Of a stretch of 64,000 nt of DNA, positions 44,111 to 61,240 are shown one piece after another. This stretch comes from an uncultured Syntrophaceae bacterium. GTDB taxonomy: Bacteria; Desulfobacterota; Syntrophia; Syntrophales; UBA2192. Positions within the stretch are counted from its first letter, which is position 1, and each line of letters opens with the position of its first letter. The stretch is from positions 12,784 to 76,783 of the forward strand of contig CAZVLL010000012.1 in the NCBI GenBank assembly GCA_964628025.1, in the 5' to 3' direction. The notes under the pieces were generated by a model, which was not told where the DNA came from, searched no databases, and was given only the letters and a program-made list of their open reading frames with translations. Position numbers and translations under genes: made by a program.

Positions 44111-45757
44111 TCAACTTTCCATTACGTAGGATCCCGGCGCTTCTTCGAGGGCCGGGTACTTCCGGGATCCCATCGGGGGAGGTTTCCCCGGCGACAGGCT
44201 TCTCTCGCGCATCCATTCCGTCCAATCCTCCCACCAGGATCCCCTTTTTTCTTCCTGACGGCCCAGCCACCGATCGGCATCCGTCTCACCGCCGGCCTCG
44301 CCGGCCCAGAACTTTCTTCTTGAGGTCTCCGACGGTGGATTCACAATACCTGTGATGTGGCCTTCACTCGACAGGGCATACCGTACGGGGCCGTCGATTC
44401 GATCGCACACCTTAAATGTGCCTTTCCAGGGGCAGATGTGATCGAGTTGGGTTCCAACCGCATAAAGCGGCTGGCGGATACGGCCGAGGTCGATGGGGCG
44501 GTCCCCGAGGTGAAGGGCATCCTTCTCCACCAGCTTGTTGTTCAGATAGAATTCCCGGAGGTAAAAGGAGCACATCGCTTCCGGCAGGCGGGTGCTGTCA
44601 TTGTTCCAGAACAATAGATCCGATTTCGGCGGAGACATGCCGTTGAGAACACCGTTGGTGAAATTGCGCCAGATCAGGCTGTCCGACCCGAGAAGACGGA
44701 ACACGAGCTGGATGTACTTTTCGCTGAGAAACCCTTCCGTTTTCATCATCGCTTCTACCAGTTCGACGGATTGCTGGGTCAGGAGAAACCCGATATCCCC
44801 CGGCTCGGAAAAATCCACGAGGGAAGAGAAAAGGGACCAGTCCGCTACGGGAAACGGCTGCGTATTTCCTTGCGATTCGTAATTCAGCCAGGCCATGAGG
44901 GCCGAGAGGGCCGTTCCCCCGATGCAGTACCCCGCCGCGTGGACCGGCGCACCCCCGCAGATGGAACTGGAAACCTGGATGGCCTGCAGGGCGCCTCGAA
45001 GCATGTAGTCATCGAAAGTCACGGCGCGCATGTGGGAATCGGGGTTTTTCCAGCTGATGATGAACACGGTGAACCCCCGATCCCGCAAATGGCGGACAAA
45101 ACTCATCGGGGGCGTGAGATCGAAAATGTAGTACTTGTTGATCCAGGGCTGGATGAACACGACGGGGACGGCGTATGTCGTGTCGGTTGTCGGCGCATAC
45201 TGAATGAGTTCCATGAGATCATTGCGGAATACAACGCTACCCGGGCTGGTAGCAATGTTACTGCCCACCTTGAATGCCTGGACATCGACCATCCGCATTA
45301 AAAAATTGCCTTCCAGAAGATCCTCTGTCCAGTACTTAAGCCCCTGGGACAGGCTTTCCCCATTGCTGTCCATGAAGCGCTGCACGGCGCCAGGATTTGT
45401 CCAGAAGAAATTGGAGGGCGAAAGGCTGTTGGTGACCTGGCGGGTCCAGAAACGCATCCGTTCCCGCTGCCGCTCGTGAAGCCCCGGCGCCTGCTCGATG
45501 AGATCGCTCAGCCATTCCTGGTAAATGGAGTGATGCCGCCGGGCCAACTGAGCGCCTGACTTCAGCGTATCGAAAAAGTCCGGCTTTCGGGGTTCCGGAA
45601 CCGCTTCCCCGATACCCAGGCACTGCTTCAACGCTTCCATTGTCGCTTCCTGAAGCTTCAACGACAAGGTTGCCTGCTTGCGCGCCAGCTCCAGCGGGCG
45701 ATCCTGCCAGGCGTGCTGCACATCCGTCAGTGCAGAGAAGACTCCGAAGAGGTCCAT
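44111..45757 (-). CDS. phaC: Polyhydroxyalkanoate synthase (class I/II-type single subunit)
   Basis: SPSNF..TNP, G.NIATSPG.VVFRNDLMELIQY, INKYYIFDL, lipase box GYCIGG, LDHICPW (Asp), GHITGIVNPP (His), SWW.DW..W, APGSYV. Confidence 0.95.
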   Translation of the reverse strand: MDLFGVFSALTDVQHAWQDRPLELARKQATLSLKLQEATMEALKQCLGIGEAVPEPRKPDFFDTLKSGAQLARRHHSIYQEWLSDLIEQAPGLHERQRERMRFWTRQVTNSLSPSNFFWTNPGAVQRFMDSNGESLSQGLKYWTEDLLEGNFLMRMVDVQAFKVGSNIATSPGSVVFRNDLMELIQYAPTTDTTYAVPVVFIQPWINKYYIFDLTPPMSFVRHLRDRGFTVFIISWKNPDSHMRAVTFDDYMLRGALQAIQVSSSICGGAPVHAAGYCIGGTALSALMAWLNYESQGNTQPFPVADWSLFSSLVDFSEPGDIGFLLTQQSVELVEAMMKTEGFLSEKYIQLVFRLLGSDSLIWRNFTNGVLNGMSPPKSDLLFWNNDSTRLPEAMCSFYLREFYLNNKLVEKDALHLGDRPIDLGRIRQPLYAVGTQLDHICPWKGTFKVCDRIDGPVRYALSSEGHITGIVNPPSETSRRKFWAGEAGGETDADRWLGRQEEKRGSWWEDWTEWMRERSLSPGKPPPMGSRKYPALEEAPGSYVMES

Positions 45758-57117: not shown

Positions 57118-58023
57118 CTATTTTCCGTCTTTCGGTGCGCCGGAGGCCGTATCGGAAATCTCTTTTTCTTTTTCCGCGGAAGGATGGGGCGGGGCATCCG
57201 TTCTCTCGGCGAACTCCGCCGTACCGGACGTATGTCCCGGCAGTTTGGGGGCTCCCGAGTCCGGCGGTGGTCCGTCGGAAGGCGCCGTCATGATCTCCTC
57301 GTACTCTTCGATGACGATGCCTCGCTTGACCATAATCCCGTAAACGATCTCGGCGCGCTTCTCCACATATTTCGATGTGCCCGTGGGGTTGTATCGGAGC
57401 GGGTTGGGAAGAACGACGGCAAGCCGTGCCGCCTCCTGCGGAGTCAGTTCTTCCGCCGACTTTCCGAAGTAGTGGCGCGAAGCGGCCTCAATGCCGAAAA
57501 TCCCGTCGCCCCACTCGGCCACGTTCAGGTAAAGCTCGAGGATGCGCCGCTTGGAGAGGGTGTTCTCGAGGCGCCACGTAAGGAGGGCCTCTTTGGCCTT
57601 CCGCAGGGGATTTTTCGAAGGAGTGAGAAAGAGGTTCTTGGCGAGCTGCTGGCTAATCGTGCTTCCGCCATACTTGAGCTTGCCCGCCTTGATGTCTTTC
57701 TCGAGTGCCTTCTGCATGGCCTCGAAATCAAATCCCTCGTGCGCAAAGAACTTGTCGTCCTCGGCGATGAGCACGGCCTTTACGGCATAGGGAGAGATCT
57801 TCGAGAGGGGTACCCATACCTGGGTTATCTTCTTGTTCTTGAGACCCTTGTACTCCCAATCAAATTCCCGGTGGGTCATGAAGGAGGTCTTCGGGGGGTT
57901 TTTCTTCTTGAGTTCGCCGACATCATAATAGAAAAAAGCCATGGCGGTGTAAACAAGGACCGCCCCCGCCAGAAGGAAGACCGCGATGAGGAGAAAACGG
58001 GTTAATTTTTTCAGGACATCCAT
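57118..58023 (-). CDS. mtgA: Monofunctional peptidoglycan transglycosylase
   Basis: AEDDKFF.HEGFD, GGSTISQQLAKNLFL, RKAKE, ILELYLNVAEWG; acidic/Pro-rich C-terminal tail. Confidence 0.93.
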   Translation of the reverse strand: MDVLKKLTRFLLIAVFLLAGAVLVYTAMAFFYYDVGELKKKNPPKTSFMTHREFDWEYKGLKNKKITQVWVPLSKISPYAVKAVLIAEDDKFFAHEGFDFEAMQKALEKDIKAGKLKYGGSTISQQLAKNLFLTPSKNPLRKAKEALLTWRLENTLSKRRILELYLNVAEWGDGIFGIEAASRHYFGKSAEELTPQEAARLAVVLPNPLRYNPTGTSKYVEKRAEIVYGIMVKRGIVIEEYEEIMTAPSDGPPPDSGAPKLPGHTSGTAEFAERTDAPPHPSAEKEKEISDTASGAPKDGK

Positions 58024-58179
58024 AGGGTCAAGACCGAGGGTTGCATGAAAACGTGCTTTTATCGCCAATGAACGGGGAAAGCAATAAGCATTTTTTGCCT
58101 TCGAAGAAGACTGGAATAAAGCATGGTAATCCGTTATAAAAATAAAGGGATAACTCACTGAAAAGACGGAGGCTCGATC

Positions 58180-59565
58180 ATGGCGGAATTAACCATCATC
58201 ACGGCGGACGATTCCTATGAAAGGACAAAATCGGGGGAAGCCCTCCTGGTCTGCGCTTACGAAGACAAAGAGCGATTTGAGAATTTCCATCTCGAAGGCG
58301 CGATTTCTTTCAGGGAATTTGAATCGAGGATTTCAACGCTGCCCAAAGATAGGCAGATAATATTCTACTGCGCCTGACCGGAGCAGGCGACCTCTGTCCG
58401 TCGGGCAGAGCAATACAAGGAGGTGGGCTTTACGAACATCAAAATCCTCTGGGGCGGCGTCAAGGCCTGGGAAAAGGCGGGGTATCCGCGGAGAAAGGAA
58501 TCCGCCAGGGGCAGCGAGAAGAAGAATCAACGATTCGTTCCCGGCAAGGGTCGGGCAAAAAAAGGTGTCAATCTGGCTCTTCAGGGTGGTGGTGCTCACG
58601 GTGCCTTCACCTGGGGTGTCCTTGACCGGATATTGGAAGAAGAACTGCTTTATATAGAAGCCATCAGCGGCACAAGCGCCGGGGCAATGAATGCCGTTGT
58701 CGTGGCCGACGGCCTCATGAAAAACGGCAAAGAGGGTGCCCGCCAGGCACTGCGGGAGTTCTGGAAGGCAGTGAGCGACGCCGCACGGTTCAGCCCGCTT
58801 CAACGGATGCCGGCCGACAGGATGGCAGGGAACTGGAATCTTGACCGTTCACCGGGCTATCTGTTTTTCGGACTGCTTGAGCAACTGGCGTCGCCGTACC
58901 AGTTGAATCCATGGAACATCAACCCGTTGCGGGACATATTGGCAAAGCAGGTTGATTTTGAACGGGTTCGCAGTTGCAACCTCGTGAAGCTGTTCATTTC
59001 CGCGACAAAAGTAAAGACGGGAAGGGCAAAACTTTTCGAACGGACGGAATTAACGTTGGACATGGTCATGGCCTCGGCCTGCATTCCGCAGCTGTTTCAG
59101 GCCGTGGAGATTGACGGGGAAGCCTACTGGGATGGCGGGTACATGGGAAACCCCGTTCTCTATCCCTTCGCATACCACTGCACGTCGAGGGATGTCATTC
59201 TCGTCCAGATCAATCCCGTGCAAAGGGATGAAATCCCGAAAACGGCCCAGGAGATCATGAATCGCGTCAATGAAATCACGTTTAACGGCGCACTGATGAG
59301 AGAGCTCAGGGCCATCGAATTTGTAGGTCGGTTGCTCGACAAGGAAAGCGTCGACCCTGTCCAGTATAAAAAGATGCTCCTCCACGTCATCAGCGCGGAA
59401 GACGTGTTGAAGGGCCTAAATGCCTCGAGCAAGCAAAATGCCGAATGGGAATTTCTCGTTCATCTGCATGACATGGGTAGAACGACTGCGGCAGAATGGC
59501 TGGAGAAAAATTATCAATCCGTGGACCAGGAATCCAGCGTGGATCTCCGTTCGCTTTTCCAGTAA
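58180..59565 (+). CDS. Predicted selenoprotein: rhodanese-like domain (C-A-U, Sec66 at TGA 58375-58377) fused to a patatin-like hydrolase (461 aa)
   Basis: The rhodanese fold continues through the TGA (IIFYCA*PEQATSVRRAEQYKEVGFTNIKILWGGVKAWEKAGYP) in frame with patatin (LQGGGAHGAF, GTSAG, DGG). SECIS-like hairpin follows. GGAGG RBS before ATG 58180. Confidence 0.85.
58392..58410 (+). promoter_or_regulatory. Bacterial SECIS-like stem-loop
   Basis: CTCTGTCC-GTC-GGGCAGAG: 8-bp stem with one G-U pair; apical loop starts with GU, 22 nt after the UGA. Confidence 0.75.
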
Positions 59566-59587: not shown

Positions 59588-61240
59588 TCATTCGGCCATG
59601 ATCCTCTCGCTGTCGTTGATGTCGCGCCAGCGGTAGGGAACAGACTCGCGTATCGCCTCCGGGATCTTCCCGAATTTCCCCTCGAAGGCCTCCAGGAACT
59701 GCTCGCGGCCACGGAAGAAATCGGTAAGTTTCTTCTTCAGCAGCTCCTTGTCGGGGAAGAGCCGGTGGGCGATCATGAGATCCAGGTTTGCCCTGTCGCA
59801 CTTGATCGGGTAGTGCAGTCCCAGGTAGTCCGGCTCGTAACTGAAGCGAAGCTGGTAGCGCAGCAGGTCGTTGTAGGCCGCAAGCGACTGCCGAAGCGCC
59901 ACCTTCAGATCGTCCTGGCCGATGGTCCCCGTGTTGGCGAGGTAGCACTTGATGCGGCTCTTCCTGAGGATCTCATAGAAAATCATGGCGTGCTCGAGCC
60001 GGTCGCCCGCTACGAAGGGGTCGAGAAAGAACTCGCGTTTGAACCTGCCTGCCTCCTCGGGAATCCCGCCTGAGCTCTCGATGGACTCGCCATAGATGAA
60101 CTGCATGGTTGCCTGCTCAGGCGTGAGCTTGCTGATCACGTTGGCCAGCGGGTTTCGCGTGAGCATGACGATGTAGTGGAGCCTGTCGGCGCGAAGCCCG
60201 GGGCTTGCGATCTCGAGCTTCTCCCGCGTCACAATGGCGCGGCCGTTGCCGGTCTTGCGGGTATCCATGAAGTCCGGCATGTAGGGGTATCGGGTGATGG
60301 CCACGTTTTCCAGGAAGGCGTCCTTCGACTCGGCCGCCCGGAGGATCTCGGGCTGGCTCTGATCAAGGCCTTCCGTTTTCACATAGAGCCCGCCGATCTC
60401 GAAGGCGGCGTAGCCGCCGTCGAAGGCGAAGGTCCCGCCGTCGTCGCCTATCATCTCGGAGGTCTCCCGGGGCAGGCGGGCAAGGCGGCGGCACAGCGTC
60501 GTCGTTTTCCCGGTGGCCGTGAGTCCCGAGATGGCCGTGACGACTTCCGTCAGCTCCGGCCGTTCCGTCTCGAGGTCGTAAATCCAGAGGAAGTCCCTGC
60601 GGGCGCCGGCATGGAGGAAGATGCCTGTCTTGTCGATGGCCTTCACACGCCAGTCCTCGAACATGAAGACACCCTTCTTCCCCTCGCCCAGGTAGATGGT
60701 GTTGCGGCAGATCTTGACCTGCTCCCCTCTCTTGTCGCCCATCCAGAGGCGCACCGCGATGTCCTTGTCCAGGAGTTTCTTCTTCTTGTTCGGCTCGAAG
60801 GCCTCGTCGGTGAAGAAAATGATGGTGTAGGTGGGCTCTTCGACGACCCTTGCCGCAGGGTAATCCATGAGGAGCTTGAGCCCATAGGCGATCTGCGCGT
60901 ACTGCTCGGGCATGATGAAGCGCGCCGTGACCCCATCGCGCCCGTCGCCCACCATCGTGTCGAGGCAAACGATCTTTTCCTTGGATAGTCGCTCCACGGC
61001 CTGGCGGGCAAGCCTCTCCTCCGCTTCGCCGAAGGGGTGGTCGACGTTGTTGAAGGTGTGGGGAGCGCAACGGTTCATGGGCTCCGAGTCGGCAGCGACA
61101 GAGCCCGCCTGCGTCTGGATCACGCCCTCGTGGCGCAGGGCGATGCGCTTGAGTTCATCGAGAGTGCGGCCCTCGGTCAGGCGCTTCTCTTTTTTGGCGT
61201 CGATGTATATCTTGATGGCGGCCTGTTTGAAGGTGCTCAT
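59588..61240 (-). CDS. pckA: Phosphoenolpyruvate carboxykinase (ATP)-like, divergent
   Basis: GEGKKG (K212/K213 equivalent), FLHA (Mn-binding His), P-loop GLTATGKTT, IGDD, GGLYVK, NGRA. Confidence 0.75.
   Translation of the reverse strand: MSTFKQAAIKIYIDAKKEKRLTEGRTLDELKRIALRHEGVIQTQAGSVAADSEPMNRCAPHTFNNVDHPFGEAEERLARQAVERLSKEKIVCLDTMVGDGRDGVTARFIMPEQYAQIAYGLKLLMDYPAARVVEEPTYTIIFFTDEAFEPNKKKKLLDKDIAVRLWMGDKRGEQVKICRNTIYLGEGKKGVFMFEDWRVKAIDKTGIFLHAGARRDFLWIYDLETERPELTEVVTAISGLTATGKTTTLCRRLARLPRETSEMIGDDGGTFAFDGGYAAFEIGGLYVKTEGLDQSQPEILRAAESKDAFLENVAITRYPYMPDFMDTRKTGNGRAIVTREKLEIASPGLRADRLHYIVMLTRNPLANVISKLTPEQATMQFIYGESIESSGGIPEEAGRFKREFFLDPFVAGDRLEHAMIFYEILRKSRIKCYLANTGTIGQDDLKVALRQSLAAYNDLLRYQLRFSYEPDYLGLHYPIKCDRANLDLMIAHRLFPDKELLKKKLTDFFRGREQFLEAFEGKFGKIPEAIRESVPYRWRDINDSERIMAE

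Follow-up and report, generated by a model that had tools for sequence, protein, structure and literature searches.

The window analyzed here, a stretch of 64,000 nucleotides (nt) from an uncultured Syntrophaceae bacterium (contig CAZVLL010000012.1), contains at positions 58180–59565 what appears to be a single gene for a cytoplasmic two-domain selenoprotein, in which a rhodanese domain with a Cys-x-selenocysteine (CxU) active site is joined in frame to a patatin-like hydrolase. We put the probability of this reading, which is derived from sequence comparison, at roughly 85%. In the open reading frame (ORF) listing made with translation table 11, the locus is split into a 65-aa ORF and a 380-aa ORF that starts from GTG 58423. 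An earlier note on this DNA, made from the letters alone, proposed that the two are one 461-aa selenoprotein and that synthesis of the patatin would depend on recoding of a UGA codon as selenocysteine (Sec). The first proposal is supported by the conservation of the TGA and of the frame, by Cys-containing homologs, by a covarying hairpin and by the Sec machinery of the genome; the second is supported by the lack of a conserved internal start. The coordinates of the features are collected in Table 1.

The short ORF (58180–58377) terminates at a TGA in the rhodanese active-site loop, in the context IIFYCA-TGA-PEQATSVRRAEQY; beyond this codon (FYCA-TGA-PEQATS) the same frame runs uninterrupted through the rest of the rhodanese domain, a basic linker and a complete patatin domain to TAA 59563–59565, which gives 461 residues with U at position 66, as the earlier note had described. 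A Pfam search with the translated frame identifies Rhodanese at residues 29–99, that is, across the TGA (E = 7.7e-9), and Patatin at residues 132–326 (E = 2.8e-23). What the note had said of the apparent patatin start holds as well: AGGAGG at 58418–58423 shares one base with GTG 58423, and no in-frame ATG, GTG or TTG occurs from 58426 to about 58600, which is well inside the patatin core. With zero spacer, the AGGAGG is unable to act as the ribosome-binding site of that codon. The N-terminal start, M[APST]EL[TI][IV]I, is kept across all relatives.

The search for other rhodanese–patatin fusions, which the note had suggested, identifies 11 distinct relatives from independent assemblies, 66–79% identical to the fusion, all of which keep the same TGA, frame and hairpin. 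They belong to Smithella, Smithellaceae, Syntrophaceae and other Syntrophales, the named records being Smithella sp., Smithellaceae, Syntrophaceae, a metagenome-assembled genome (MAG) of ‘Syntrophus aciditrophicus’ and a complete Syntrophales chromosome. In the databases, the nearest proteins are 356–397-aa ‘patatin’ ORFs, mostly starting inside the rhodanese fold, and the publicly called starts fall at various points within the rhodanese domain or the linker; on the contigs of the relatives, a 64–65-aa ORF lies directly upstream of the patatin ORF in every case. When TGA is translated as U, the relatives yield single frames of 461–468 aa, with the U in an invariant IIFYCAUPEQATS[VT]RRA block. 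When 300 genomes of the order are searched in six frames, 6 of them, from five GTDB families, have a full-length match, with exactly one TGA each. Overall, the TGA is invariant in the 11 fusions and in more than 40 stand-alone homologs.

When nine fusions are aligned by codon, the stretch of 15 codons that separates the TGA from GTG 58423 has 4, 3 and 12 variable columns at codon positions 1, 2 and 3, respectively, a pattern that indicates that these codons are translated; 11 of the 15 residues are invariant. The codon called as the internal start is GTG, TTG, CTG or TCG depending on the relative. In the linker of the same nine fusions, nearly every position is variable and the length ranges from 22 to 29 aa, with indels of whole codons only and no stops; the earlier note had raised a stop or a frameshift between the domains of close relatives as a point against its reading, and none was seen. 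Among the long ORFs of this genome, more end in TGA than in any other stop (595 of 1201), and several fusion genes of the relatives themselves end in TGA; this codon is therefore not a general sense codon here. Together, these patterns rule out the two-gene annotation as well as a pseudogene or a sequencing error. The rhodanese–patatin architecture was found only in Syntrophales, as far as these comparisons indicate. An apparent 650-aa fusion (L070) was rejected, being only a high-GC open frame that surrounds a stand-alone gene.

A putative selenocysteine insertion sequence (SECIS) starts 14 nt past the TGA. It is a hairpin of 7 bp (CUCUGUC/GGCAGAG, loop CGUCG, −11.3 kcal/mol) that in an alternative register has a bulged U and a GUCG loop; the GUCG loop starts at 58400, so that the apical loop lies 22 nt after the TGA, where the note had placed it. 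For bacterial SECIS elements, the distance from UGA to loop is reportedly 16–37 nt, a rule said to come from Zhang & Gladyshev 2005. Stand-alone TGA-containing rhodanese genes of the order and of the phylum possess the hairpin at identical codons. With 9 fusions and 13 stand-alone genes aligned without gaps, and with slid registers as controls, 89.6% of the cells are paired in the helix vs 30–52% in the slid registers, and the covariation score is 0.373 vs 0.08–0.16; none of 500 shuffles matches the observed pairing or covariation score. Compensatory changes, UA<->GC and UA<->CG, affect two pairs of the helix; at the second loop position, G never varies and mostly precedes a U. Among the fusions alone, the pair 58395/58407 alternates between U-A and C-G via synonymous third-position changes in Ser and Ala codons, a switch that requires at least two events on the protein tree.

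The genome also encodes most of the machinery for Sec insertion. Of the selA, selB, selC and selD genes for which the earlier note had proposed to look, three are present above curated cutoffs, namely selA (608 bits, cutoff 268), selB (359 bits, cutoff 242) and selD (379 bits on TIGR00476, cutoff 125; C23:25204-26136); selC was not found in the assembly. The selD gene carries an in-frame TGA of its own, so its predicted product is a selenoprotein SelD, and the same genome contains two further TGA-containing rhodanese genes, both stand-alone.

Three negative results weigh against the assignment of the TGA to Sec. First, tRNA-Sec was not detected in the 33-contig assembly by ARAGORN (default and relaxed), the Rfam model RF01852 or BLAST with the gene of a congener, and it is absent also at two relaxed-threshold candidates and in the region syntenic with the selC of a congener. 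This absence is likely, but not proven, to be an assembly gap because only 33 tRNA genes were assembled (ARAGORN count), at a CheckM-type completeness of 98.9%; tRNA-Sec scores above the Rfam threshold in all five relatives tested, which include two same-genus and two fusion-bearing genomes. (In two same-genus genomes, the tRNA-Sec match of 76 bits is accompanied by a second, weaker match of about 50 bits each.) Second, an Rfam scan of the locus at E<=10 produces chance matches only and no SECIS family. Third, the 75-nt region does not fold better than its shuffles (z = −0.79). The case for the predicted hairpin is comparative, not thermodynamic.

In an HMMER alignment with 6mxv, a solved rhodanese, U66 falls opposite the catalytic Cys in the loop C-G-S-G-F-R-S, with C64 two residues earlier. 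In the AlphaFold model, the active-site loop C64-A65-U66-P67-E68-Q69 lies between a strand (59–63) and a helix (70–81); the predicted local distance difference test score (pLDDT) of the AlphaFold2 (AF2) model is about 90 for the domain, and a Foldseek search aligns it to single-domain rhodaneses with a root mean square deviation of 2.7–3.1. The best NCBIfam match is NF041203, rhodanese_LYCAU, with 58.6 bits vs a cutoff of 115, over profile positions 54–124 of 126; a stand-alone paralog in the same genome reaches 61.5 bits on this profile, likewise below the cutoff. The [LF]YCAU motif of this family is present as FYCAU at residues 62–66. By these matches, the rhodanese part is a below-cutoff relative of NF041203, the ‘form 3 / COG0607 form 2, CxU’ predicted selenoprotein. 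The CxU rhodanese-like selenoprotein ‘form 3’, or COG0607 form 2, is predicted in two reviews (PMC13188914, PMC9312934), and a UxU variant of the rhodanese has been described for Olavius symbionts (PMC1976440).

With the NF041203/CxU rhodaneses, the fusion shares the [LF]YCAU motif, the Sec in the catalytic loop and the position of the hairpin, and with the stand-alone CxU members of this order also the stem sequence; NF041203-type proteins likewise occur in Sec-rich anaerobic Desulfobacterota. However, the known CxU members are stand-alone proteins of about 105–126 aa whereas the fusion adds a 340-aa hydrolase domain, and its loop reads UPEQATS-VRR vs UP/TxExxxA-G in the known members. A single rhodanese tethered to a catalytic partner is found also in CoADR-RHD (3icr), in the NADH-dependent persulfide reductase 3nt6 and in the beta-lactamase-fold/rhodanese protein 3tp9, all of which are structural matches of the N-terminal domain of the fusion; these proteins use Cys, and their partners are flavoprotein reductases or metallo-hydrolases, in contrast to the Sec and the patatin-type Ser-Asp hydrolase of the fusion.

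Homologs with Cys aligned to the TGA, the search for which the earlier note had likewise suggested, were identified as FYCAC-P proteins in a pattern scan of 185,579 species genomes. The FYCACP proteins come from Methylomirabilota (stand-alone), Nitrospiraceae, Steroidobacteraceae, Rhodocyclaceae, other Proteobacteria, Blastocatellia and Actinomycetota MAGs, and one Cys form was seen in the phylum sample. A Cys form of the fusion was found neither by a word-indexed search of 5.8 billion proteins with residues 1–118, in which full-length candidates were considered, nor among the best 150 matches of an exhaustive HMMER search of 1.84 billion representatives; in ten N-terminally extended patatins, the extensions contained no Pfam domain.

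Several related rhodaneses were also observed. Outside the window, the same genome encodes a stand-alone 105-aa CxU rhodanese selenoprotein (L058, C6:48556-48873, plus strand) that is 47% identical to residues 7–103 of the fusion and has the stem CUCUGCC/GGCAGAG, almost the same as in the fusion (full hairpin CUCUGCC-GGUCU-GGCAGAG), as well as a stand-alone rhodanese with two TGAs, FY-TGA-A-TGA-P, that is, UxU, and the same type of hairpin (L059, C9:118167-118457, minus strand). Another genome (L069 in G538) has FY-TGA-G-TGA-P. In six loci (L085, L088, L089, L093, L095 and L100), FYCACP is located at the C-terminus of membrane-like frames of 317–620 aa with hydrophobic segments; the hosts of these L085–L100 Cys forms are Proteobacteria, Nitrospiraceae, Blastocatellia and Actinomycetota MAGs.

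The C-terminal part matches PF01734 with 83.6 bits vs a gathering score of 27.7, and its motifs G136-G141, G164-T-S166-A-G168 and D318-G-G320 are invariant in 29 sequences. A patatin fold is predicted with a pLDDT of about 88, and Foldseek matches it to CapV, PlpD, CapE and patatin. That this part is a catalytically complete Ser-Asp acyl hydrolase is strongly supported by these motifs. PlpD (5fya), CapV/CapE (8zr9, 9ion) and patatin (1oxw) have the same fold (Foldseek E = 3e-10, probability 1.0) but are only 13–21% identical to the patatin part of the fusion; the sequence match to PlpD has an E-value of 2.4e-10. An effector lipase of the CapV type, from cyclic oligonucleotide-based antiphage signaling systems (CBASS), was considered and rejected: the NF041079 score is 32.2 bits vs a cutoff of 200, and no gene for a cGAS/DncV-like nucleotidyltransferase (CD-NTase) is in the neighborhood.

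Among stand-alone proteins, the closest relative is a Syntrophales protein of 361 aa, whose gene has an ATG of its own and is not preceded by a rhodanese. Stand-alone homologs in other phyla, 63–65% identical, overlap by 4 nt with the end of a 3-hydroxybutyrate dehydrogenase gene (378 bits on TIGR01963) in two of the three loci examined, with an acetoacetate decarboxylase gene upstream. The order of genes in two such strings (L116:1783-5041 and L118:2414-5041) is acetoacetate decarboxylase, 3-hydroxybutyrate dehydrogenase, patatin. A Legionella bdhA-patD mutant is defective in the breakdown of polyhydroxybutyrate (PHB), according to the summary of Aurass 2009 that is given in PMC4549902. The fusion resembles the PatD-type patatins in the Ser-Asp dyad motifs and in having stand-alone relatives at bdhA; unlike the bdhA-coupled patatins, it has no bdhA neighbor and contains the extra N-terminal Sec-rhodanese.

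The comparisons strongly support the following route of synthesis. Translation starts from ATG 58180, and UGA 58375 is recoded to Sec by SelB and tRNA-Sec, directed by the hairpin 58392–58410; the ribosome then proceeds through the rest of the rhodanese, the 22-residue disordered basic linker and the patatin-like hydrolase. Failed recoding would leave a 65-residue fragment and no hydrolase. Because there is no conserved internal start, the hydrolase would be made only upon recoding of the UGA. With regard to the activity, the CxU rhodanese might be a portable module with chalcogen or redox reactivity that is linked here to an ester hydrolase and in which the Cys64/Sec66 pair would form a selenenylsulfide (Se-S) or, with sulfane sulfur or selenium, a perselenide/persulfide adduct. 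Given that stand-alone orthologs appear translationally coupled to 3-hydroxybutyrate dehydrogenase genes, the protein most likely hydrolyzes oligomers or polymers of hydroxyalkanoates, or else lipid esters, and the state of the Sec would tune its activity or its choice of partner. An effect of the rhodanese on the hydrolase, including the redox or persulfide switch at the CxU site that the earlier note had envisaged, is something that we only infer. A broader scheme, in which the CxU Sec-rhodanese is a repeatedly recruited chalcogen sensor that in Syntrophales gates a storage-polyester or lipid esterase and so links the mobilization of reserves both to selenium supply, via UGA recoding, and to the sulfane-sulfur or redox state, via the Cys64-Sec66 switch, seems to us quite improbable.

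Several observations speak against this functional part of the interpretation. The linker is predicted to be disordered (pLDDT <50 at residues 108–123), no fusion-specific Cys was found in the patatin domain, the neighbors of the fusion gene are different in every relative, and no BdhA scores above the cutoff in this genome; furthermore, the Smithella-type, fusion-bearing genomes G269 (99% complete) and G268 have no homolog of PhaC at E<=1e-30. Since its neighbors differ everywhere, the fusion gene is a self-contained unit.

Among the alternatives, a real Sec-containing fusion without a switch survives best. The rhodanese would then be an independent sulfur- or selenium-transfer enzyme that is only co-expressed or co-localized with the hydrolase, as would befit a disordered and variable linker, a patatin domain that lacks a fusion-specific Cys and the presence of both halves as stand-alone proteins in the same order. 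However, the fusion is kept at 66–79% identity over five Syntrophales families and has four fusion-specific substitutions in the patatin domain (R203Q, R235Q, P315A and G389E), so we regard this alternative as possible, if on the unlikely side.

It is rather doubtful that the patatin domain is devoted to depolymerization as the partner of the PhaC whose gene lies 12 kb upstream in the window. A PhaC_N protein is indeed encoded there, members of the patatin clade are associated with bdhA and adc elsewhere, and of five further fusion genomes that were tested, three have a homolog of PhaC; but the two fusion-bearing genomes named above lack one, several fusion-free genomes do have PhaC, the fusion never adjoins pha genes in the relatives, and BdhA, as noted, is missing here at the cutoff used. 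PhaC homologs thus occur in only some of the fusion-bearing and some of the non-bearing relatives, and the link between the fusion and the PhaC gene is weak.

Readthrough of the UGA without Sec, whether by near-cognate insertion of Trp or Cys or under a reassigned code, would fit the missing tRNA-Sec, yet TGA is the main stop codon of this genome, selA, selB and selD are intact and selD carries a TGA itself, the SelB-type hairpin is conserved and congeners have tRNA-Sec, all of which makes this explanation very improbable. Barely credible is the expression of two products as annotated, a 65-aa peptide and a 380-aa patatin from GTG 58423 with the rhodanese as a broken relic: gene callers in five sources give the same split and AAGGAGG is found just ahead of the GTG, but purifying selection with codon periodicity acts on the 45-nt ‘gap’, some relatives have CTG or TCG in place of the unconserved GTG, the AGGAGG is spacerless and missing in relatives, 11 fusions and dozens of stand-alone genes keep both the TGA and the hairpin, and the stops or frameshifts expected of a relic are not seen.

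Table 1. Predicted features of the fusion gene and nearby genes (positions in the 64,000-nt window)
Feature	Position	Strand	Basis or remark
Complete selenoprotein gene	58180..59565	+	461 codons + TAA, single in-frame TGA
Ribosome-binding site GGAGG	58168..58172	+	7 nt ahead of ATG 58180; read from sequence
Rhodanese domain, residues 1-105	58180..58494	+	Pfam PF00581, NF041203, AF2 pLDDT ~90, Foldseek
Cys64 codon TGC	58369-58371	+	completes the CxU motif with Sec66
TGA, predicted Sec66	58375..58377	+	canonical position of the catalytic Cys; conserved in homologs
Putative SECIS hairpin	58392..58410	+	helix 58392-58398 / 58404-58410, loop 58399-58403, invariant G 58400
GTG chosen by gene callers as patatin start	58423..58425	+	codon of Val82 inside the rhodanese fold; artefact
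Basic variable linker, residues 106-127	58495..58560	+	22 residues here
Patatin-like hydrolase domain, residues 128-461	58561..59562	+	PF01734; GGGAHG 136-141, GTSAG 164-168, DGG 318-320
Predicted nucleophile Ser166, codon	58675-58677	+	motif position
Asp318, codon	59131-59133	+	motif position
Transglycosylase-like protein (GGSTISQQLAKN motif)	57118-58158	-	flanking gene, judged by eye
550-aa protein	59588-61240	-	flanking gene, judged by eye
548-aa protein, PhaC_N domain	44111-45757	-	E = 2.9e-51; 12 kb upstream of the fusion

In a tree of patatin domains, all fusions form one clade (support 98/91) that is the sister group of a stand-alone Syntrophales patatin. The clade includes three entries that look stand-alone, two of which turned out to be fusions whose starts had been called too far downstream; the third, P0012, begins within the rhodanese fold (81% coverage). 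This topology fits a single origin within Syntrophales, in which a stand-alone Sec-rhodanese joined a stand-alone patatin. Sixteen other genomes of the same genus lack the fusion and have only patatins of about 50% identity at non-syntenic loci; no synteny with these same-genus patatins was found. In two congeners (L113 and L115), the genes that flank the fusion on both sides are directly adjacent, with a gap of about 170–180 nt, so that the fusion gene looks inserted at a variable spot; the closest congener (L107) has different genes at this position. This distribution suggests lateral acquisition of the fusion gene within the order.

On an ENA metagenome contig (L021:3398-4821; likewise L022), the fusion gene is followed some 300 nt downstream by a 99-aa catalase-fragment ORF and by a gene for a bacterial eRF1-like protein of 375 aa (baeRF family). 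The location of a release factor-like gene beside a gene with a recoded UGA may be a coincidence.

Two selenoproteome reviews, of 2022 and 2026, cover five forms of rhodanese, whereas patatins, lipases and phospholipases are absent from their lists, and a full-text search of the literature on patatin with rhodanese or with selenocysteine found nothing relevant. Neither the CxU module nor its SECIS is new; the novelty lies in the fusion partner and in the selenium-dependent hydrolase that results. The fusion would add a new architecture to the prokaryotic selenoproteome. It also corrects a systematic misannotation, namely a 65-aa orphan ORF and a 356–397-aa ‘patatin-like phospholipase’ in public records, and provides a hydrolase in which the dependence of synthesis on UGA recoding can be tested directly. 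The CxU rhodanese family gains a tethered partner with an assayable activity, which could reveal the chemistry of the Cys-x-Sec pair. If the sensor-gating scheme outlined above is true, the protein would be the first lipase or esterase among selenoproteins and the first hydrolase gated by selenium.

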